DNA of 64,000 bases from NCBI GenBank assembly GCA_963800385.1, contig CAWDAU010000009.1:721264-785263 (forward strand). Direction: 5' to 3'. Positions 5,481-18,281 of this stretch are shown in pieces. This DNA is from an uncultured Gammaproteobacteria bacterium (lineage in GTDB: Bacteria; Pseudomonadota; Gammaproteobacteria; Steroidobacterales; Steroidobacteraceae). A model generated the notes under the pieces. It was given only the letters and a program-made list of their open reading frames with translations. It did not search any database and was not told the DNA's origin. Positions within the stretch are counted from its first letter, which is position 1; every line of letters starts with the position of its first letter. Made by a program: the position numbers and the translations under genes.

Positions 5481-6263
5481 ATGGCGCATCATTCACCGCG
5501 TTGCCGCGCCATGGACAAAGCACTGCGTCCTGAAAACCAAACTCCTCGACCTTCGCCAGGCGCTTACCGGCGGATGATTCTGCCGCATCCGGTGTCGCTG
5601 CTTGGCACCGGACAACCCGATGTAGAGACGGCGATGATGGGACAGCTGGGGCCGGATACCCTATTCATGATGGGCGACAATCCGGCGCTCTCGAAAATGC
5701 CCGAGCGGCCGCAGCTGCTGGATTTTTTTCGCCAACGGTTTTCCCCGTTCACCCGCAATCATCTGCTGCAAAGCGCCCTGGTCGCGCTCAAGAGCGGCAT
5801 GGAAGAAAAAGTGGTGCTGGCGTGTTTGCTGCATGACATTGCCAACGGCGCCCTGATTCGGGTCGATCATGGATATTGGGGCGCCCAGCTCATCGAGCCC
5901 TACGTATCCGAAGAGATCGCTTGGGCGGTCCGCAATCATCAGGCATTGCGGTTTTTCGCCGATGAGTCGGTGGGCTATCAGTATCCGGAGGCTTACATAA
6001 AATTCTTCGGTCCCGACTACCAGCCTGCCGAGTACATCAAGCAGGCCTATGCGCAGGCCCGTGGGCATCGTTGGTACATGACCTCGCGCCTCATTACGTT
6101 GAACGACCTGTACTCGTTCGACCCGAACGTGACCGTGGAGCCCGAGTTGTTCGGCGACATCATCGGCAGGCATTTCAAGCAGCCCAAAGAGGGACTGGGA
6201 TTCGACGGCTCCGCCGTGGCGCATATGTGGCGAACGATGATTTGGCCGAACAACTTGTTGTAA
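5481..6263 (+). CDS. HD-domain metalloprotein with a PhnZ/MIOX-like six-ligand pattern
   Basis: NHLLQSAL..x..LLHDI, then DHGYWG, RNHQAL and a distal D. Start is uncertain; alternative ATGs lie at 5511 and 5574. Confidence 0.7.
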
Positions 6264-6294
6264 GACGAGAATCGGAGCGGGTGACACTCGCATC

Positions 6295-6774
6295 ATGCAG
6301 GAGATGGGGATGGAACTGCAGATCAACGACAAGACAGTGACGATCGAGGCCGAGCCGGATCTGCCGCTGCTGTGGGTATTGCGCGATTTGCTGGGAATGA
6401 CCGGCACGAAATTCGGTTGCGGCATGGCGCTCTGCGGTGCATGCACCGTGTTGGTCGACGGCCAGGCGCTGCGCTCATGCGTGCTCCCGGTCGCGCAAGC
6501 CGCAGGAAAAAGGCTCACCACCATTGAAGGCGTCGGCGCGACCGCCGTGGGCGTGGCGCTGCAAGGGGCATGGCAAGAGATCAACGTGCCGCAATGCGGC
6601 TACTGTCAGGCAGGACAGATCATGTCTGCCGCCGCACTGCTTCAAGTCAAACCCGATCCGAGCGACGCCGACATCGACGCCGCCATGTCCGGGAATATCT
6701 GCCGTTGCGGCACCTACCCGCGCATACGCGCGGCCATCAAGCAGGCTGCCAAGCATGCGGAGCACGCCAAATGA
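6295..6774 (+). CDS. (2Fe-2S)-binding small subunit of an aldehyde-oxidase/isoquinoline-oxidoreductase-type enzyme
   Basis: Cys clusters [12 protein letters not shown] and CRCGTY. The start could instead be the ATG at 6304 or 6310. Confidence 0.85.
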
Positions 6775-9080
6775 GCGCGGTAACGGTGGATTTCGCGGCG
6801 TCGACGGGCTTGAGCCGCCGGGATTTCCTGCGGCAACTTCAAGCGCTGGGCGGCCTCTTGCTCGTCGCCGATGGGCTGCACATCGCAAAGGCCGCGGATG
6901 CGCCCAAGTACGGCGCCGAGGGCATGGAGCATGGCACGGTCGACAATCCTCTGGTGTTCCTGGCCATCGGCGATGACGGCTGGGTCACCATCGTCGTGCA
7001 TCGCTCGGAAATGGGCCAAGGCGTGCGCACGGGCATGCCTCTCATTGTCGCGGATGAGCTGGAAGCCGACTGGAGCAAGGTCCGCGTCCAGCAGGCACCG
7101 GCCGACGAAGAAAAATACGGAAACCAAGACACCGACGGATCCCGCAGCACGCGGCATTTCATCGACCCGATGCGCCGCTGCGGAGCCGCGGCGCGAATGA
7201 TGCTGGAACACGCCGCGGCATTGTCCTGGAGCGTGCCGGTCAGCGAAGTTCACGCGGTCAATCATGAAGTGGCGCATCAAAAAACCGGCCGCAAGCTCTC
7301 CTACGGCACCCTCGCCGCGCGAGCCAGGAAGCTGCCGGTGCCGGCGGCAAGCGCCCTGCGCTTGAAATCCTCCGAAGAGTTTCGCTATGTCGGCAAAGGC
7401 GGCGTGCCGATCGTCGACGGACACGACATCGTCACGGGGCAGGCGCAGTACGGCATCGACCCTTGGTTCAAGGACATGAGCTTCGCGGTCATCGCACGCT
7501 CACCCGTGCTGGGCGGCAGCGTCAAGCAATTCGACGGCAACGCAGCCGCCGCGGCGCCAGGCGTCCAGAAAGTGCTGCAGATGGCTGCGCCGGTCGCGAA
7601 GGCCACGTTTCATCCGCTCGCCGGCGTTGCGGTCATCGCCAATTCCACGGGGGCGGCGATCGCCGCGCGCAAGCTGCTGAAAATCGAATGGCAGGATGGC
7701 GCCAACGGCAGCTACGATTCCGATGACTATCGTGCCTCGATGCAGCAATCCGCCCAGAAGCCCGGCAAGCTGGTGCGCGAGGCCGGCAACGTCGATGCAG
7801 CGTTCAAATCCGCTGCCAAGTCGATCGAGGCGCAGTACTACATTCCGCACATAGCCCATGCGACGATGGAACCGCCGTGCGGCGTTGCGCGCATCGTGGC
7901 CGGCAAGGTCGAAGTATGGGCGCCCACCCAAGCCCCGCAAGTCACCCGCGAGGACGTCGCGAAGCACCTTGGGGTCCCTTGGGAAAATGTGACCGTGCAT
8001 GTGACGCTGCTCGGCGGAGGATTCGGACGCAAGTCGATGCCGGACTTCGCGATCGAGGCCGCGCTGTTGTCGCAAGCCATGGAAGGGCGCCCGGTCAAAG
8101 TGACCTGGACCCGCGAAGATGACCTGCATCATGATTTCCTGCACACCGTGTCGGTCGAATACATGAGGGCGGGTGTCGCGGCCGACGGCAAGGTTTCAGC
8201 GTGGCTGCATCGAAGCGTGGCGCCCTCGCTCGCCACGAGCTTCGCGGCCGGCGTCGATCACGAAGTGGACGCCGAGCTTGGAATGGGCTTCATCAACATG
8301 CCCTACGACATTCCCAACCTGCGGCTCGAAAATCCGCAGGCGAGCGCGCATTGCCGCATTGGTTGGTTTCGCTCGGTGTCCAACATACCCCACGCATTTG
8401 CCGTGCAGTCGTTCGTGTCGGAGCTGGCGGCGAGCGCCAACCGGGATCACCGCGACTACTTGCTCGAACTCATCGGGCCGGCGCGCAAGATCGATCCCAA
8501 CAGCCTTCAGGACCACTGGAATCACGGCGAATCGCCGCAGCGCTATCCGGTGGACACCGGCCGCCTGCGCCGCGTGGTCGAAACCGTCACCGAAGAAGCC
8601 GGCTGGGGCAAGAAATTCGCTCCCGGCCGCGGGCTGGGACTGGCCGCGCACTATAGTTTTTTGAGCTACGCCGCGGCGGTGGTGGAAGTGGACATCGATG
8701 CACAGGGGCGAATCGCGGTGCCGCGCGTCGATGTCGCATTCGACTGCGGCCCGCAAGTCAATCCCGAGCGCATTCGCTCGCAACTCGAAGGCGCCGTCAT
8801 CATGGGGCTGAGCCTCGCGATGTTCGGAGAGATCACTTTCAAGAAGGGCCGGGCGCAGCAGAATAACTTCCACCAGTATCGCGTCACCCGGATGAATGAA
8901 GCGCCCGCCGAAATCCGGGTGCACCTCATCCCGGCGCGGGATTGGACGGTGCCATTGGGGGGCGTGGGTGAACCCGGCGTGCCGCCGATTGCGCCTGCGC
9001 TGTGCAACGCGGTGTTCGCGGCTACCGGCAAGCGGATTCGCAGCTTGCCCATCAAGGATCAAGCCAAACGCCCAACTTGA
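6771..9080 (+). CDS. molybdopterin-binding large (beta) subunit of the same oxidoreductase, Tat-exported
   Basis: The ATG at 6771 forms an ATGA overlap with the small-subunit stop. Tat motif SRRDFLRQL. Size and sequence are typical of IorB-like subunits. The 67-aa N-terminal extension in the track ORF overlaps the previous gene. Confidence 0.85.
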
Positions 9081-9124: not shown

Positions 9125-10891
9125 CTAGGAGAGCGGGTTCTGCCAGCGCGCCTCAGGCCTCGATAGAACTGAATTCAGTTGAGCCGCGAGATCGCTCAAC
9201 GTGTAGGGCTTCGGCAGCAACGGAATCCCTTCATCCTCGGCATCGCGTTTGGCGGCGGCGGAGAAGCCGCTGACCAGAAGTACGGGCAATGAAATTTTGC
9301 GCTGGCGCATCTCTCGCACCAATGCCATTCCATTCATGCCGCCGGGCATCATGACATCCGACAGCACCAGTCCGATGCCGGGCGTTGCCGCAAGTTCGTT
9401 CAATGCGGCCTGTCCGGTCGTCACGGGTATCACCTCGTAGCCCAGCTCGGCCAACATCGCGCTGGTCAGCGATGCGACCTGAACATCGTCTTCGACCAGC
9501 AGCACCCGGCAGGGCGCGGAAGCGCATGTCGATGGCGCGCGGCGCGGCTCCCGGCGCCGTGTTGCGGCACTGGGCGACTCACTCGACCGCGGCAGCAAGA
9601 GCAATACCTTCGTGCCTTCTTGGGCCCTGCTTTCAATTTCCACCGAGCCGCCGGATCCGCGCGCGAAGCCATACACTTGCGCGAGCCCCAGCCCCGAGCC
9701 TTTGCCAATGTCTTTGGTGGTGTAAAAAGGCTCGAGGCAACGCGCCACCGTCGCAGTATCCATCCCCACGCCGGTATCGCTCACCGACAGCTCCACGAAA
9801 TCGCCTGTCAGCCCGTATTCGCCGATGTCGGCGCGGTTCACGGCGGCGATCGTGATCGTACCGCCTTGGGGCATGGCATCGCGGGCATTCACGCAGAGAT
9901 TCAGCAGCGCGATGCCGAGTTCGCCCTCATCGACGCGCACCGGCCACACGTCCGCAGCAAAAACTGTCTTTACCGTTACCGATCCGCCCAGCGAACCATC
10001 GAGCAGCTCTCTCATGCCCTCCACATGCCGAGGTATCGCGATCGGCTTCGCATACAGCTCCTTTTGTCGTGAGAAGGCCAGGAGCTGGCGCGTGAGAGCC
10101 GCGCCGCGCTGCGCCGCTTGACGCATCCCTTCCCGCACCTTTTGCCGTCGCTCGGTCGTCGGCTCGCGGTCCAAGATGGAGAGACCGCCGCTGATGACCA
10201 TCAAAAGATTATTGAAATCGTGCGCGATACCCCCGGTCAGCTGACCGACCGCCTCCATCTTCTGGCTTTGGCGCAGCAACCGTTCGGTGCGCTCGCGCTC
10301 CTCGACCTGAGCCAACAGGGCGGCATGCGCGCCGCGCAGCCGATCGGCCGCGATCCGTTGCTCGGTCAGGTCGGTGATGATGCAGCAAAAGATCTCCTCG
10401 CCATGCAAGCCGTCGCTGCGCAACGCGCTGAAGGACACGTGAGCCGGAATGACGCGTCCCCGCTCGGTCTTGACGCCAAGTTCGCCTTTGGATTCGGAAG
10501 CGATCATGTCGAGCGCATCGGGCCAATCGGCCGCGGCGATGAAACGCGCCAGCGATCCGCCGATTACCCGTTGAGGTTCGGTCTCCACCAGCTCTGCGAG
10601 GCGTCTGTTGCAATAAAGAATGTCGCCGCTGCGGGTCAGGGTCAATGCGCCTTCCTGCATTTCCTCGACCAACAGCCGATAGGTCTGATCCGCCGTCTCG
10701 AGGGTGTAGATCCGGGGTACGCTGTCGGCGCCCGTGACCACGACCGCGTCCACGTCGCCACCGCGGATGGCGTCGAGGGTTTCTTCGGCCTCGCGCAGTT
10801 TCTCCCAAAGGGCAGTATTTTCCATGCGCAGCTGCTGCGCGGTCTGGTCCGCAGCGGCATCGGGAAAATCATGACCAACGGGCGGGTTCAT
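9125..10891 (-). CDS. PAS-domain hybrid sensor histidine kinase/response regulator
   Basis: PAS regions, H-box GIAHDFNNLL, HATPase G-boxes (DTGVGM, GSGLGL), and a C-terminal receiver domain (LLVEDD ... SDVMMPGGMNG). ATGA overlap with the kaiB stop. Confidence 0.85.
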   Translation of the reverse strand: MNPPVGHDFPDAAADQTAQQLRMENTALWEKLREAEETLDAIRGGDVDAVVVTGADSVPRIYTLETADQTYRLLVEEMQEGALTLTRSGDILYCNRRLAELVETEPQRVIGGSLARFIAAADWPDALDMIASESKGELGVKTERGRVIPAHVSFSALRSDGLHGEEIFCCIITDLTEQRIAADRLRGAHAALLAQVEERERTERLLRQSQKMEAVGQLTGGIAHDFNNLLMVISGGLSILDREPTTERRQKVREGMRQAAQRGAALTRQLLAFSRQKELYAKPIAIPRHVEGMRELLDGSLGGSVTVKTVFAADVWPVRVDEGELGIALLNLCVNARDAMPQGGTITIAAVNRADIGEYGLTGDFVELSVSDTGVGMDTATVARCLEPFYTTKDIGKGSGLGLAQVYGFARGSGGSVEIESRAQEGTKVLLLLPRSSESPSAATRRREPRRAPSTCASAPCRVLLVEDDVQVASLTSAMLAELGYEVIPVTTGQAALNELAATPGIGLVLSDVMMPGGMNGMALVREMRQRKISLPVLLVSGFSAAAKRDAEDEGIPLLPKPYTLSDLAAQLNSVLSRPEARWQNPLS

Positions 10892-11217
10892 TTGACGGCG
10901 GCGGCGCTATCTTTGGGACTCAAACCCAGACCGACCAGTACCCGCTCTTCGTTGGCAAGATCACCGATGATTCGCCGTAGCGGCAATGGCAGCATCTTGA
11001 CCAAGGTGGGAGCGGCCAATATCTGATGTTCTTGCGCTGCGGCAGGATGCTGGTAAATATCGACCACTTCGAGGTCGTATTCGCCGCTCAGCCGCTCCTC
11101 GCAAACCCGCCGCAGATTCGCGATCGCTCGCGCTGAGCGCGAGGTCGTACCGGTGATGAACAGACGCAGCACATAAGGCGGACCCTTCGGCAGCACAGGC
11201 TTCGGCGTCTCGCTCAT
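10888..11217 (-). CDS. kaiB: KaiB-family protein (distal copy)
   Basis: 109 aa. [30 protein letters not shown]...P..A....I.A.PTL.K..P.P.RRIIGDL matches the KaiB thioredoxin-like signature. ATGA overlaps at both ends. Confidence 0.85.
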
Positions 11218-11543
11218 GGCGCCGAAACCTGGCGTAAATCCAACCCCACCAAAACCCGTTCCATGTTCGATAAGTTGCCGATGATTCGCTTCAGGGGCTG
11301 CGGCAGGCGGCGCACCAGCGTCGGCACCGCCAGGATCTGGTCGCCCGCCGCCAGTTGCGGTTGTTCGAGCAGATCGATTACCTCGATTTGATAGCGCCCC
11401 ACCAGATGCTCCTCGCAAACCTTCTTCAAATTCGCGAGCGCCGTGATCGATTTCGGCGTCTGCCCCGCCACATACAGGCGCAAATTGTAAATACCGCCGG
11501 GACGCACCGATTCCCCCATCGCCGTATTCATCGCTTGATTCAT
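11214..11543 (-). CDS. kaiB: KaiB-family protein (proximal copy)
   Basis: 109 aa. [74 protein letters not shown] overlaps with kaiC and with the second kaiB. Confidence 0.88.
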
Positions 11544-13246
11544 GACGCAGTCCCTCCACGCTGAATGGCCATCGCGCGTCTCTCAGCTTGCATGCGCTTC
11601 TCGAGTTCCTCATCGTGTTGCAGCAGCTTTCGAGCTTCTTCTTCCTCCGATTCAAGCTCTGCGCGCAGCTCCGCGATTTGCCGCTCCAGCGCCGCACGCT
11701 TTCGTTGCAGCTCGCGCTGTCTGCGCTCATTGCCCTGGCGGCGTCGAACCGCCGCTGCGGCGTCGACCATTTCTTGCGCAATGCGCGCCGACCCGGTCAA
11801 GACGCCGCCGCCGCCGAGGTAGGCATCGACGAGCTTGACGCCTTGCGAGGTCAATTGATACTCGCGAATCTGATTGGAATGGTTCATGCCGCGCGACTTG
11901 AGCACATAGATCCCGCGATTGCGCTCGCCGTTGCTTTCGAGTTGCACCAGCGACACCCAGGTGTCCATGAGCGATGACATGCCGGCATCGGCCTTGTCCA
12001 TTCCCGCCACGGAGAGCAGGTCGGTCAGAAATGCCGTGATGCCGCGGCTCTTCAGCAGGTCGATTACCCGCAGCAGCATTGAATGCACGTCGCCGGACTC
12101 GCCCCGCAACGCAGAGATCGGATCGAGCACCACCGCGGCGGGCGCGAACTCCTCGATTTCCCGATACATGCGCGCCAGGTGCATCTCGAGGCCGAACAGG
12201 CTCGGCCGCGCGGCCTCGAAACGCAGCAGCCCCGCAGCGACGCGCGGCTGCAAATCGAGGCCAATGGAGCGCATGTTGCGCACAATTTGCGCCGGCGACT
12301 CCTCGAACGCGAAATACAGACAGCGCTCGCCGCGCGCGCAGGCCGCCTCGACAAAGTGCGCTGCGAGGCTGGTCTTTCCGGTGCCGGCGCTTCCCGACAC
12401 GAGAATGCTCGTGCCGGCATAGAACCCGCCGACCCCAAGCATCTGGTTCAAGCCCGAAATCCCGGTCGAGATCACCTCATTGGAAGCCGAGTGCGCCAAC
12501 CCCGCCGACGTCACGGGCAGCACGGATAACCCCTGCGCGTCGATGAGAAACGGATACTCGTTGGTGCCATGCGCGGAGCCGCGATATTTCACCACGCGCA
12601 GCCGCCGCGTCGTAATTTGCTCTCTCACCCGATTGTCGAGCAGCATCACGCAATCCGACACGTACTCCTCGATGCCATACCGCGTGAGCGCGCCGTCGCC
12701 TTGCTCGGCCGTGATGATTGCCGTCACTTCCCGCTCCTTCAGCCAGGCGAAAAGACGGCGGATTTCCGCGCGCAAAATCTGTGTGTCGCCCAGCCCCGCA
12801 AACAGCACCTCGAGCGTGTCCAGCACCACCCGTTTGGCGCCCACCGATTTGATGGCGTAGTCCAGACGCACGAACAAACCCTCGAGGTCGTATTCGCCGG
12901 ATTCTTCGATTTCGCTGCGCTCCAGCCGCACGAAGTCGATGGCGATTTTCTTCCGCGCGACCAGCGCACCCAGGTCGTAACCCAGTGAGCGGACATTTTT
13001 GATCAGATCGTCGCTCGACTCTTCGAAACTCATGAACACGCCGGGCTCATCGAACATGACGGCGCCATTGACCAGAAAACTCGTTGCCAGAAGAGTTTTG
13101 CCGCAACCGGGCCCGCCGCAAATGAGCGTTGGACGTCCGGCCGGCATTCCGCCCAAAGTGACCTCGTCCAGGCCATGGATTCCGGTTCTGGCTTTCGCAA
13201 GCGGCCGCGCAGACGATGCGGCGGGTATCGATGCCGTATTGCTCAT
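11540..13246 (-). CDS. kaiC: KaiC circadian-clock/timer ATPase with a C-terminal coiled-coil extension
   Basis: Two RecA-like halves with Walker A motifs GGPGCGKT and GSAGTGKT. Catalytic EE pairs FEESSDD and FEESPAQ. The start taken is the ATG at 13246 (MSNTAS...), which forms an ATGA overlap with the RHH gene stop. Confidence 0.92.
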
Positions 13247-13470
13247 GATTTCTTCTTGTCCTTGAATACCCGTACTTGTCCCCACGGGTTTTGGTGGCGC
13301 GAGACCCCGTTGATGCGCTCGCGCAGCGCAGTTTCGATGAAATTGGTGAGAGACCGATTATCCCTGGCGGCGGATTGCCGAACCTCGGCGAGCAGATCAG
13401 GATTCAGGCGCACCGTGACCGGTGTTTTTAGTTGTGCCATCGCCGCACTCTGGTGCAGGGTGATGCGCAA
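13243..13470 (-). CDS. ribbon-helix-helix (CopG/Arc-like) DNA-binding protein
   Basis: KTPVTVRLNPDLLAEVRQSAARDNRSLTNFIETALRE is a classic RHH beta-alpha-alpha sequence. The start is either the TTG at 13470 (AAGGA 9 nt upstream) or the ATG at 13440. Confidence 0.7.
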   Translation of the reverse strand: MRITLHQSAAMAQLKTPVTVRLNPDLLAEVRQSAARDNRSLTNFIETALRERINGVSRHQNPWGQVRVFKDKKKS

Positions 13471-13604
13471 AGCAATACATCCTTCAACACGTTTCTGCTG
13501 TAAGCCGTATCCTACAGTTCAGGCGCGGACGCGCAGCAGCGGCAGCCAGGGATGGGCGGGTTCGATGGCCTGCGGCTTTTTTCACGCCGAGTCGACGAAC
13601 AGAC

Positions 13605-15344: not shown

Positions 15345-15560
15345 CGCATATCCCCCGATTAATTCACGCGCACAGGCGCTCACTGTAGCGCGACCGCCGC
15401 CTGGATTCTCGCCTCGAGATGCTCGCCCCGCAGCGCGCGCAGCGAAGCTGTCCGGCGCGATCTATATTTCTGATTAATAAACCCTTTTTTGACCAACCCA
15501 ATTAAAATGGGCTGGGAGCGCTGCGGCGGCGGCGTATCCGGCAGACGATGCAATCGATTC

Positions 15561-15734
15561 ATGAGGATGAAAGCTGTGGCGTTCGAAATGACCAAACTGG
15601 TGGGGGCCGTAACATACTTCGTGGGCCAGGGCGTCGGATTGATCGACGGCGTGAAATCGGCGGCCCGGGTCGTTCAAGATTTCAAGGAGGATTTTGCGGA
15701 AGCCATGAGTACGGTGATGGCTTGGAGCGAATGA
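15561..15734 (+). CDS. hypothetical small protein (57 aa, amphipathic)
   Basis: ORF MRMKAVAFEMTKLVGAVTYFVGQGVGLIDG.... Its stop overlaps the next ATG (ATGA). There is no convincing SD sequence, so coding status is uncertain. Confidence 0.3.
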   Translation: MRMKAVAFEMTKLVGAVTYFVGQGVGLIDGVKSAARVVQDFKEDFAEAMSTVMAWSE

Positions 15735-16273
15735 ACAAGATCAGCCCCAGAGATTTTCATAACGCCTTCATCGCGGCCATGAAGTCCGAGGAGGATGCCT
15801 TTCGCACGGCCCGCGGTTTTGAGCCCAAGTCTTACAAGTACTTCATGCGGTCGACGATTTACCCCAAGATAGCCCGGCATCTCGGCCTCTCATCCTGGAA
15901 CAAGGAATACTACACGCTGGACGGGATGTTTTATGAGGAGCGCGGCGTCGACGCCACCGGCAAGTTCGCCTCGTATGCCAATTGGGTTTCAGTGGCCATT
16001 GAGCATGAAATCGATGCTTCCCTTGCGCAAGAAACCATGAACAAGCTGCAGCTCTTCAACGCACCGCTCAAGGTGCTGATCAGCTACGCGCCGCCGGGCG
16101 GCGCGAGCGATTCGCTGCTGCGCAAGTACGAGAACATCATTCGAGCCTCGGATGTCTTCAAGGACGTCGCGACCTTGAGGCAACAGCTGGTGATCCTCGG
16201 GACGCCAAAATCCGCCGACTGGCGCTTGTACGCCTATGAGAATGACGGCTTCGTATTGATGCTGCCTGCGTGA
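15731..16273 (+). CDS. hypothetical protein (180 aa), no recognisable domain
   Basis: Protein-like composition and clean ORF. Translationally coupled upstream (ATGA), with its stop 1 nt before the TIR gene ATG. The Arg/Gly-rich upstream extension in the track ORF was rejected. Confidence 0.6.
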   Translation: MNKISPRDFHNAFIAAMKSEEDAFRTARGFEPKSYKYFMRSTIYPKIARHLGLSSWNKEYYTLDGMFYEERGVDATGKFASYANWVSVAIEHEIDASLAQETMNKLQLFNAPLKVLISYAPPGGASDSLLRKYENIIRASDVFKDVATLRQQLVILGTPKSADWRLYAYENDGFVLMLPA

Positions 16274-16274
16274 G

Positions 16275-18281
16275 ATGACCGCCAAGATGGAGACCAACAA
16301 GGCCGTCTTCCTGAGCTATGCCTCGGAAGATGCGCAGGCTGCGCTGCGGATCTGCAGCGGATTGCGCGAAGCCGGAATCGAGGTCTGGTTCGACCAGAGC
16401 GAATTGCGAGGCGGGGATGCCTGGGATGCCTCGATCCGCCGCCAGATCAGGACCTGCGCACTCTTCATCCCGATAATCTCCAAGAATACCCATGCTCGCG
16501 GCGAGGGCTACTTTCGCCTCGAGTGGAAACTGGCCATCGATCGCTCGCATCTGATCGCCGCCAACCTGCCTTTTTTGCTGCCGGTCGCGATCGATGACAC
16601 CCCGAATAACGACGAACGCGTTCCGGAGCGCTTTTGCGAAGTGCAGTGGACCAGACTGCCCGCAGGAGCGATTTCCGCCGCTTTCATCGAGCGCGTCAAG
16701 GGACTGCTCACGCCGCCCGAGGCCTCCAGCAAGCCGGTGGCGGCCGGCAGCGCAAGGGGTCCGAAGCCGACGTCGGCGATCGCGCCGCCGCGAGTCCTGT
16801 GGTCCGTGCTCATTGGACTGGCGGTACTTGGATTCGGTTATGCCGCGATCCAGCGCCTGCTGCCGCAACAGGCAGGGAGGCCTTCGGCGCCGGTGTCGCA
16901 AGCGGAGACTACGGCGCCGGACAGCATCCCTGAGCAATCGATCGCGGTGCTGCCGTTCACCGACGTGAGCCCGCAAAAGGATCAAGCGTACTTTTCGGAC
17001 GGATTGTCCGAAGAACTCATCAATCAGCTCTCGCGCATTCCCACTCTGCGGGTGCCGGCCCGCAGGTCATCGTTTTTTTTCAAAGATAAGCCCGATGATA
17101 TCGCAACTATCGCGCGGCGCTTGCGCGTCGCGCACGTGCTCGAGGGCAGCGTTCGCAAGACCGGCGTGCGCCTGCGCGTCACCGCGGAACTGATACGTGC
17201 CGACAATGGCTACCACATCTGGTCGGAGACCTACGACACGGATTTCAAGGATGTATTCAAAATGCAGGACGAAATCGCCAGCGCGGTGGTTACCGCGCTG
17301 AAGTTGCGGCTTGCGCCGCTGCAACGCACCGCCGCGCAAAATACTTCCAATACCGAGGCATACAACGATTACCTTCTGGCGCGGCAGCTCTATGCGCGCG
17401 GCGCCGGCGATGACTACCTGCACGCCATTCAGTTCTTGCGCAAGGCGATCGCACTGGATCCCAATTATGCCGCGGCCTACGCAGACCTGGCGCTCGCCGA
17501 ATTCGCCTCGGCGGACCGGATCGGCGATCCGGCGGGTACTCGACGGGCGTTGCAAGCCGCGGACAAGGCCGTATCGCTGGCGCCGGAAGCAGCCGCCGGG
17601 TATTCGGCGCGCGGTTTCATCCGCTCCAATTTCGTTTGGGACTGGACTGGCGCGCAAGCTGATTTCCGCAAGGCGCTCGAGCTGGAACCGAGCGACGCCG
17701 AGGTTCAAGACAACTACGGTCAACTCCTGCAGAGCCTTGGGCGGCTGGCCGAGGCGATTGCGGCGGCAAGGAAGGCGACCGAACTGGATCCCCTGTCGGG
17801 TCCTGCATGGGAGAATCTTGCCCGATTTCTGACCGACAATCGCGACTATGCCGCGGCGCGCGCGGCAAACGCTCATGCATTGGAGTTCAGTCCCGAGGGC
17901 ACGTATGCACTCAACAACTTGGGCACGCTGCAGCTGCTCGAAGGCAGCCCGGCCGATGCGCTGCGCACCTTTCGCCAGGTTGGCTTCGAGGGCTTTCGAT
18001 TGCAGGGCGTCGCCATGGCGGAGCACAGCCTGGGCGATGTCAAAGAGTCGCAACAAGCGCTGGATGATCTCATTGCCAAGTATGCGAAGGACGGTCCTTA
18101 TGAGATCGCAGACATCTATGCGTGGCGCGGGGAGAAGGACCAGGCGTTCCAATGGCTGGAGCGGGCGCAGCAGCAGCGTGACGGCGGTCTGGCGAATCTG
18201 AAGTCCGACCCTTTGCTCGCATCGCTGCGCACGGACGCACGCTATCAGGATTTGCTGAAGAGCCTGAATCTACCGCGGTAG
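16275..18281 (+). CDS. TIR-domain protein with one TM helix and a C-terminal TolB-N-like plus TPR sensor region
   Basis: TIR motifs VFLSYASED, VWFD, FIPIIS and YFRLEWKLA (Glu83). TM helix VLWSVLIGLAVLGFGYAAIQRLL. IAVLPFTDVS..YFSDGLSEELINQL module, then TPR repeats to the end. Confidence 0.85.
   Translation: MTAKMETNKAVFLSYASEDAQAALRICSGLREAGIEVWFDQSELRGGDAWDASIRRQIRTCALFIPIISKNTHARGEGYFRLEWKLAIDRSHLIAANLPFLLPVAIDDTPNNDERVPERFCEVQWTRLPAGAISAAFIERVKGLLTPPEASSKPVAAGSARGPKPTSAIAPPRVLWSVLIGLAVLGFGYAAIQRLLPQQAGRPSAPVSQAETTAPDSIPEQSIAVLPFTDVSPQKDQAYFSDGLSEELINQLSRIPTLRVPARRSSFFFKDKPDDIATIARRLRVAHVLEGSVRKTGVRLRVTAELIRADNGYHIWSETYDTDFKDVFKMQDEIASAVVTALKLRLAPLQRTAAQNTSNTEAYNDYLLARQLYARGAGDDYLHAIQFLRKAIALDPNYAAAYADLALAEFASADRIGDPAGTRRALQAADKAVSLAPEAAAGYSARGFIRSNFVWDWTGAQADFRKALELEPSDAEVQDNYGQLLQSLGRLAEAIAAARKATELDPLSGPAWENLARFLTDNRDYAAARAANAHALEFSPEGTYALNNLGTLQLLEGSPADALRTFRQVGFEGFRLQGVAMAEHSLGDVKESQQALDDLIAKYAKDGPYEIADIYAWRGEKDQAFQWLERAQQQRDGGLANLKSDPLLASLRTDARYQDLLKSLNLPR

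Follow-up and report, generated by a model that had tools for sequence, protein, structure and literature searches.

In this work, a five-gene Kai operon was identified in a stretch of DNA of 64,000 nucleotides (hereafter the window) from an uncultured gammaproteobacterium of the family Steroidobacteraceae (GenBank assembly GCA_963800385.1, contig CAWDAU010000009.1, positions 721,264 to 785,263). Read directly, the minus strand at 9125-13440 consists of five open reading frames (ORFs), encoding a ribbon-helix-helix (RHH) protein, KaiC, two KaiB proteins and a hybrid histidine kinase. The KaiA-less KaiBC pair is the widespread version of the bacterial clock and is thought to be older than the KaiA-containing form. 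We consider it probable that the locus is a chromosomal, KaiA-independent KaiBC module of the KaiC2 type, whose output runs through the PAS hybrid kinase and whose expression the RHH protein controls by autoregulation. The KaiC motifs and extension, the two KaiBs, the kinase with its N-terminal PAS (Nt-PAS) part and the chaining of the genes can be read off the sequence, and they are located as follows.

13441-13520, minus strand: conserved non-coding block 5' of the RHH gene, candidate promoter/operator (from ortholog comparison; putative function)
13243-13440, minus strand: RHH gene, 65 aa (Pfam RHH_1, NCBIfam NF041551)
11540-13246, minus strand: kaiC of the KaiC2 subgroup, 568 aa (8DBA match, PRK09302)
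11214-11543, minus strand: proximal kaiB, the conserved "position-1" type, 109 aa (Pfam KaiB)
10888-11217, minus strand: distal kaiB, the divergent "position-2" paralog, 109 aa (Pfam KaiB)
9125-10891, minus strand: hybrid histidine kinase gene, 588 aa (Pfam)
10888-13246, minus strand: span of the four ATGA start/stop overlaps, read off the sequence

The five genes are joined, as the original prediction had stated, by four ATGA overlaps at 13246-13243, 11543-11540, 11217-11214 and 10891-10888, in each of which the downstream ATG overlaps the upstream TGA. An overlap of 4 nt was found in all four gene pairs inside the operon and, elsewhere in the window, in only one of 23 pairs of adjacent ORFs that share a strand. 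Relatives were collected from GTDB with one genome scanned per species, which gave 26 loci (these and further loci are cited by L numbers where they have to be told apart). All four overlaps are kept in the orthologous Steroidobacteraceae loci L002-L005, L008, L009, and L027, three of them in L001, L007, and L028, and many of the overlaps are also present in loci from other phyla. Given this contrast with the background and the retention in orthologs, the ATGA chain of the Kai operon is real and conserved, and not a product of chance. The Shine-Dalgarno context differs along the operon, with GGAGGG before the proximal kaiB, a purine-rich stretch before kaiC, little before the distal kaiB and none before the kinase ATG. 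Thus, the translation of the distal kaiB and of the kinase gene probably depends on termination-reinitiation. The original prediction had also derived strict translational coupling and stoichiometry from the overlaps; the coupling can be retained and the stoichiometry cannot, since 4-nt overlaps mean translational coupling and give no guarantee of fixed ratios.

KaiC contains two tandem RecA-like KaiC domains, recognized by Pfam PF06745 (348 bits, in two stretches) and by NCBIfam PRK09302 (711.8 bits, cutoff 408). Its best match in the PDB is KaiC of Rhodobacter sphaeroides (KaiC-RS, 8DBA; E=1.9e-193, 55% identity), with residues 15-565 of 568 aligned to residues 4-556 of 8DBA. The alignment includes the C-terminal extension, which follows the 8DBA tail without a gap up to residue 565. 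A motif check confirmed the predicted catalytic apparatus, namely the two Walker A loops (GGPGCGKT at 44-51 and GSAGTGKT at 285-292) and the EE pairs at 75-76 and 315-316, one in each of CI and CII. The Ser-Ser pair at 424-425 lies in GMSSLMDT, which is aligned to GLSSLMDG of KaiC-RS, and the phosphomimetic mutant 8FWI reads EE at the same place; Ser424 and Ser425 are therefore the predicted phosphosites, a Ser-Ser pair in place of Ser-Thr. The KaiC2 clade is defined by an extension of ~50 aa and by Ser-Ser sites (Pitsawong et al., 2023, PMC10076222), and by these features the protein is classified as a double-domain KaiC of the KaiC2 type whose ATPase and kinase motifs are intact. Two hexamers of KaiC-RS are linked by a coiled coil of the extension, which also holds the A-loop in an exposed position, and this exposure explains the KaiA-independent autophosphorylation; the ratio of ATP to ADP drives the R. 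sphaeroides hourglass, and a single KaiB suffices there (PMC10076222). The parts of kaiC were placed as follows.

About 13189-12515, minus strand: CI domain
About 12493-11777, minus strand: CII domain
About 11776-11543, minus strand: C-terminal extension

In one related locus, L019 from a gammaproteobacterial metagenome-assembled genome (MAG), kaiC is split at 6007-7372 into ORFs of 89 and 389 aa and lacks the equivalents of residues ~72-185; the remaining genes of this locus, for the RHH protein, the two KaiBs and the kinase, are intact. This split kaiC is a pseudogene or an assembly error.

In agreement with the prediction that the window holds no kaiA-like gene, Pfam detected a KaiA domain neither in the five operon proteins nor in 42 ORFs from the rest of the window, and these 42 include no additional Kai protein and no receiver protein. 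The KaiA-less KaiBC and the PAS hybrid kinase of the predicted proteobacterial hourglass or timer system were thus upheld by the 8DBA alignment and by the lack of KaiA in the window; the second PAS domain and the rarity of the double kaiB, which belonged to the same claim, were not.

Both KaiBs match PF07689 over their full length, as expected from the original prediction of two full-length genes behind kaiC. The proximal protein scores 91.9 and the distal one 88.0 bits (cutoff 27), with 81 of the 82 profile positions covered in both. KaiB of R. sphaeroides (8fwj_M) is the best PDB match of the two (E=1.6e-28 for the proximal and 4.4e-27 for the distal KaiB). The equivalog cutoffs for cyanobacterial KaiB were missed by both proteins (104.3/93.6 vs 110 for NF006798, and 98.5/90.6 vs 145.3 for TIGR02654), so by their profile scores they are KaiB-family proteins and not cyanobacterial-type equivalogs. 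The duplicated kaiB had been regarded as unusual. This did not survive the comparison of loci, because kaiC is followed by two kaiB genes in 19 of 23 informative related loci mapped with tblastn and ORFs (the four others have a single kaiB), and the term "kaiCBB" was already mentioned once, in the 2018 genome paper of Thiodictyon syntrophicum (PMC5944118). The order kaiC-kaiB-kaiB-(Nt-PAS gene) is spread over Acidobacteriota, Planctomycetota, Bacteroidota, Actinomycetota and Alpha-, Beta-, and Gammaproteobacteria. Outside L001-L009 and L019, two kaiBs were found in nine of 13 loci, among them those of Acidobacteriota, Phycisphaerae, Bacteroidota, Solirubrobacteraceae, Micropepsaceae, Rhizobacter, and Ideonella.

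The two positions are occupied by different types of KaiB. In the neighbor-joining (NJ) tree, all position-1 KaiBs, including those from single-KaiB loci, form one tight group, and the position-2 KaiBs branch apart from it and are more divergent. In the tree of KaiC, the loci with two KaiBs take basal and scattered positions, and those with one KaiB, KaiC-RS among them, are nested inside. The simplest reading of both trees would be an old duplication of kaiB followed by repeated loss of the distal copy. Among the sampled KaiC2 relatives, the presence of two KaiBs that diverged long ago seems to be the rule; the trees are NJ trees of short proteins, and the locus sample was seeded by 8-mers of the window KaiC and is biased towards its relatives. 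A redundant duplicate kept for dosage only would fit the facts that both copies are full length, pass the KaiB model and are predicted in the same ground-state fold, and that single-KaiB systems such as that of R. sphaeroides function. We regard it as unlikely, because the split between the two types runs through at least six phyla, pointing to an old duplication with both copies retained, and because the proximal-then-distal order is fixed across loci. Moreover, the divergence is asymmetric: outside L001-L009, identity to the window copies is 64-81% at position 1 vs 41-71% at position 2, as is typical of sub- or neofunctionalization.

AlphaFold2 (AF2) was run on paralog-specific alignments of each KaiB. 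The distal model reached a predicted local distance difference test score (pLDDT) of 75.6 and a template modeling (TM) score of 0.73 to ground-state KaiB, and the proximal model a low pLDDT of 60.7 and TM scores of 0.67-0.70 to ground-state KaiB tetramer structures; TM scores to fold-switched KaiB were about 0.4 for both. The idea that one KaiB is locked in the fold-switched, thioredoxin-like state is unsupported, as AF2 places both, with low confidence, in the ground-state fold. At the position equivalent to D90 of Synechococcus elongatus, the distal KaiB reads GLGL in the window and its closest relatives (L001, L002, and L004), GLDL is found in other position-2 KaiBs, from Steroidobacteraceae and several further phyla, and in most position-1 KaiBs, and the Rhizobacter/Ideonella group has TLGL; this position (D90/D91) has been linked, with others, to the fold switching of KaiB (PMC5520375). 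No functional work on the second KaiB came up in our literature searches.

The last gene encodes a hybrid sensor kinase, with a HisKA domain carrying the phospho-acceptor His, a HATPase_c domain and a receiver with its Asp. It scores 351 bits against NCBIfam PRK13557, below the cutoff of 631, and so falls outside this subfamily. Its parts are the following.

10891-10682, minus strand: N-terminal extension, residues 1-70, conserved, with no Pfam model
10681-10355, minus strand: PAS domain, residues 71-179 (Pfam)
10246-10061, minus strand: HisKA domain, residues 216-277, with AHDFNN (Pfam)
9931-9587, minus strand: HATPase_c domain, residues 321-435 (Pfam)
9505-9176, minus strand: REC (Response_reg) domain, residues 463-572 (Pfam)

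The original prediction of a PAS-PAS-HisKA-HATPase-REC kinase was correct for the HisKA, HATPase and REC domains. A second PAS domain was undetected by Pfam, which finds a single one (71-179), and residues 1-70 are the conserved extension instead. The same N-terminal module opens the gene after kaiB in all ten aligned loci, which belong to different phyla. It comprises ~55 aa with the pattern L-x-x-R-L-x-E-A-E-E-T-L-x-A-I-R-x-G-x-V-D-A-x-V-V and Y-T-L-E-G-A-D and leads into a single PAS domain. The domains behind the Nt-PAS part vary, including HisKA_3-HATPase, HWE_HK-REC, GAF, PAS-GGDEF-EAL, GAF-HisKA-HATPase-REC and, as in the window, HisKA-HATPase-REC; in the window and in L010-L022, the motif AIRxGxVDAxVV … YTLEGAD precedes the PAS domain whatever the output domain. 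The variety of outputs is in line with earlier descriptions (PMC3164672, PMC4794148). From this conserved input module with swapped outputs, we infer that Nt-PAS is the part that would read the Kai state. A precedent is found in cyanobacterial KidA, whose PAS domains bind KaiB (PMC9478674).

The RHH protein passes Pfam RHH_1 (PF01402; 23.0 bits, cutoff 20.5) and NCBIfam NF041551 (33.5 bits, cutoff 30). It belongs to the Arc/CopG-like class and the YlcI/YnfO_N subfamily, and PHROGs gives matches to Arc-like repressors. The DNA-binding core spans ~residues 5-44, and the remainder (45-65) is a basic tail of variable sequence. Orthologs hardly differ in residues 1-44, the tail varies, and across the gene as a whole third codon positions are the most frequent site of nucleotide differences; this pattern argues for purifying selection on the core. 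The RHH gene and the operon had been taken to begin at 13470. However, the TTG at 13470 reads TTA in L004, L023, L027, and L028, and L023 has a frameshift between TTG and ATG, which excludes a 75-aa ORF from this TTG; by this comparison, the gene most likely starts at ATG 13440 and encodes 65 aa. A word-indexed search returned 149 homologous proteins, with at least 68% identity among the 120 matches listed, from soil and peat metagenomes and Steroidobacteraceae MAGs, some of them named as YlcI/YnfO family. Furthermore, when 1.84 billion representatives were searched exhaustively with HMMER, 160 relatives were obtained at E<=1e-3, most of them small RHH proteins of 55-100 aa with 45-65% identity over the 40-aa core. 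Judged by these searches, the protein is a lineage-specific branch of a modest RHH family.

The RHH gene was found in 15 loci, which have kaiC identities of 76-98% and include five metagenomic contexts, the eight genome loci L001-L005, L008, L009, and L019, and L023. In all 15 it stands 5' of kaiC, with the 4-nt overlap in 14 and a 6-nt gap in L019. The order RHH-kaiC-kaiB-kaiB-histidine kinase is present in all five metagenomic contexts and in the eight genome loci; the contig of L023 ends inside kaiC, with the RHH gene 5' of it. A survey of this synteny confined the RHH version to one lineage. The original prediction had held the combination of an RHH leader and a duplicated kaiB to be undescribed, which is retained for the leader within this lineage and not for the double kaiB, which is common and already named. 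Literature searches returned nothing on RHH or CopG together with Kai, and the leading RHH gene is, as far as these searches reach, the only undescribed element of the locus. It is accessory and not core, being dispensable for the core system, since it is absent from the close relatives L006 and L007 and other phyla have different small genes upstream. In Rhizobacter and a related MAG (L014 5617-5838 and L024 5617-5838), a conserved 73-aa ORF (…LRRELLETV.ALQRRRADLVSEALIADYVALYWLEWNGGTLQLTQTGKNVCDQMRAEARLP) lies 5' of kaiC, and single-domain REC genes occupy this place in an Acidobacteriota and a Bacteroidota locus (L016 5252-5638 and L017 5455-5847). The slot 5' of kaiC seems to recruit varied accessory regulators.

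The 80 nt in front of the RHH gene are conserved as well. Positions -80 to -1 show 69-94% identity in six of seven orthologous loci, compared with 26-69% for -160 to -81; L023 fails this ungapped comparison owing to an indel. The block holds TGTAGGATACGGCTTACAGCA (13516-13496) and GTATTGCTTTGCGCATC (13478-13462), both unique in the window, the second of which reads TTGCGTTGCGCA in most orthologs, and it carries a TTGCG-TTGCG element. A weak promoter candidate, CTTACA-19 nt-TGTATT, was noticed by eye only. An RNA element in the 5' block was rejected (no Rfam match, covariation term -0.23), and so was a sigma-70 promoter or terminator bracketing the operon, for which nothing was found on the minus strand. 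In L027-L031, an extra 151-aa gene on the opposite strand lies between the esterase and RHH genes, and L027 also has a 137-aa gene on the same strand. The most economical reading would make the RHH protein an Arc/CopG-type autorepressor acting on the upstream block, for which CopG of pMV158 (PMC2724298) and RelB (PMC2812701) are precedents. The gene might instead be an unrelated passenger without a Kai role, for example an orphan antitoxin gene or the remnant of a toxin-antitoxin system or mobile element. Similarity to RHH_1, Arc-like and HicB-like proteins is typical of antitoxins and phage repressors, the family is narrow, and two close relatives do without the gene. We find the passenger explanation quite improbable, because the conserved non-coding block travels along with the gene, the local composition is like that of the neighbors, the position before kaiC is constant, and the DNA-binding core is near-invariant with mostly silent changes. 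Pfam found no toxin domain in the operon, kaiC is the gene that follows, and PADLOC gives no match for the RHH protein; without an adjacent toxin partner, a type II antitoxin was rejected.

The closest loci (78-98% KaiC identity) come from MAGs of Steroidobacteraceae or uncultured Gammaproteobacteria from soil and peat. The local GC content and composition of the operon match its flanks, and the flanking carboxylesterase and molybdenum-cofactor oxidoreductase genes are syntenic in metagenomic relatives; a genomic island was rejected on the same two grounds. By composition and synteny, the Kai locus is judged to be chromosomal and vertically inherited in Steroidobacteraceae. The 42 neighboring ORFs with their Pfam matches point to catabolic and transport genes, and no photosynthesis or nitrogen-fixation genes were found within the 64 kb.

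We hypothesize that the module works as follows. By homology to R. sphaeroides, the KaiC extension would form a coiled coil and hold the A-loops exposed, allowing autophosphorylation without KaiA, and KaiB would bind CI and promote KaiC dephosphorylation when ATP/ADP falls. It would mean that the system is an environmentally driven hourglass or metabolic switch and not a free-running clock. The Nt-PAS part of the kinase would read the state of KaiBC and pass it on by His-Asp phosphotransfer. Gene layout and conservation suggest that the RHH protein, as the product of the first gene, would act on the 80-nt block as an autorepressor and so set the expression of the whole operon, and that the KaiBs would be non-redundant, the proximal one serving as the canonical binder of KaiC-CI. 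The faster-evolving distal KaiB may have a modified role, for example as a modulator or an adaptor to the output protein.

Several points weigh against this reading. Autophosphorylation, dodecamer formation, KaiB binding and binding of RHH to DNA are all predictions from sequence here. The minus strand 5' of the RHH gene has no sigma-70 consensus, no inverted repeat or palindrome of at least 8 nt was found there, and between the end of the carboxylesterase gene (13605) and the RHH gene no terminator-like minus-strand site is present at 13441-13604, so read-through from the esterase is possible and the 5' boundary of the transcription unit in the window is uncertain. The absence of the RHH gene from L006 and L007 counts here too. 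AF2 shows no structural difference between the KaiBs, and their functional divergence is argued from phylogeny only. A KaiA or KaiA3-like gene may lie elsewhere in the genome, since KaiA3-type proteins occur outside cyanobacteria, adjoining other kaiBC clusters (PMC10931921). The host is probably a non-phototrophic soil bacterium, and KaiBC homologs of Legionella and Pseudomonas have been suggested as possible timers or linked to stress resistance and are not shown to keep daily time.

In an alternative reading, the module would be a switch of a heterotrophic soil bacterium responding to stress or energy state (ATP/ADP) rather than a day/night timer. The host lineage of Steroidobacteraceae MAGs from soil and peat, the ordinary catabolic neighbors and the lack of photosynthesis and nitrogen-fixation genes in the 64 kb all suit such a switch. 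A preprint on environmental Pseudomonas ties KaiC-like proteins to stress resistance, and the R. sphaeroides hourglass is itself driven by ATP/ADP. On the other hand, daily cycles also occur in the temperature and moisture of soil and in plant exudates, which makes timing possible, and the alternative concerns the physiological role only, since the same molecular reading fits it. We hold the stress switch to be a serious alternative with a somewhat less than even chance. A bolder idea is that the distal KaiB is a conserved and functionally distinct third core component of KaiC2-type systems in many phyla, acting as an adaptor to Nt-PAS or as a competitor tuning the binding of KaiB, together with an RHH feedback loop in this lineage. 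There is a small chance of this, and it would imply a KaiA-free system with richer dynamics than the single-KaiB hourglass of R. sphaeroides. The RHH-led operon also lends itself, by its simplicity, to the question of whether an hourglass that works post-translationally is tied to direct transcriptional autoregulation. To our knowledge, the KaiA-less systems studied (R. sphaeroides, R. palustris, Legionella) all have a single KaiB; given the usual two-KaiB layout in sampled KaiC2 relatives, the role of the second KaiB is a concrete and testable question.

Apart from the Kai operon, two adjoining plus-strand genes were observed in the window. The first (15548-16273) encodes 241 aa, has a lower GC content of about 56-59% and gave no Pfam, PHROG or PADLOC match. 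The second (16275-18281), which starts one base after the stop of the first, encodes a 668-aa protein with TIR_2 and TPR domains, whose TIR part weakly matches TIR models of defense systems. The two may form a TIR defense or signaling pair.

By comparison with known systems, the locus belongs to the established KaiA-independent KaiC2/KaiB/PAS-kinase family, whose features it preserves well, and is not a new type of clock. The nearest studied relative is KaiBC of R. sphaeroides (8DBA/8FWJ, PMC10076222). It shares with the window the KaiC of 568 aa with 55% identity, the Ser-Ser sites and the C-terminal extension, the KaiB that is the best PDB match of both window KaiBs, the lack of kaiA (in the window, on our side), and a PAS histidine kinase gene in or beside the kaiBC cluster (PMC4794148, PMC10931921). 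The window differs by having two KaiBs where the R. sphaeroides study has one, by the RHH leader, by a kinase that is a hybrid with a C-terminal REC domain, and by a host that is a soil gammaproteobacterium and not a phototroph; it is known from its genes alone. The context of kaiC-kaiB with a downstream histidine kinase or GGDEF/EAL gene was described in 2011 (De Luca et al., PMC3164672) and 2016 (PMC4794148). In Rhodopseudomonas palustris, kaiC, kaiB and a PAS signaling protein gene lie under one promoter, and a kaiC mutant loses fitness only under cycling conditions (Ma et al., 2016, PMC4794148). This KaiA-less, "proto-circadian" operon shares the order kaiC, kaiB, PAS signaling gene with the window, where kaiC, kaiB and the PAS kinase gene stand on one strand, and the same order was found in 23 related loci. 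To it and to the general context, the window adds the distal kaiB, the RHH gene in front and the complete chain of 4-nt overlaps. The "kaiCBB" of Thiodictyon syntrophicum Cad16T (PMC5944118) likewise combines kaiC with two kaiBs; its neighbor is a diguanylate cyclase, no RHH gene is reported, and the mention is at annotation level, compared here by description only. The CopG/Arc/RelB autorepressors (PMC2724298, PMC2812701) resemble the window in an RHH gene that comes first and is co-translated and in a conserved block over the likely promoter, whereas the partners here are clock-type signaling genes and not replication or toxin genes, and operator and repression are putative. Cyanobacterial KaiABC with SasA/CikA has homologous KaiC and KaiB and a histidine-kinase output that reads the KaiBC state. 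Unlike it, the window has no KaiA, KaiC has Ser-Ser and not Ser-Thr sites and a C-terminal extension, the kinase uses Nt-PAS and not a KaiB-like thioredoxin domain, and the KaiBs fall below the equivalog cutoffs. The findings thus extend a known system, and the current understanding of it is not overturned.

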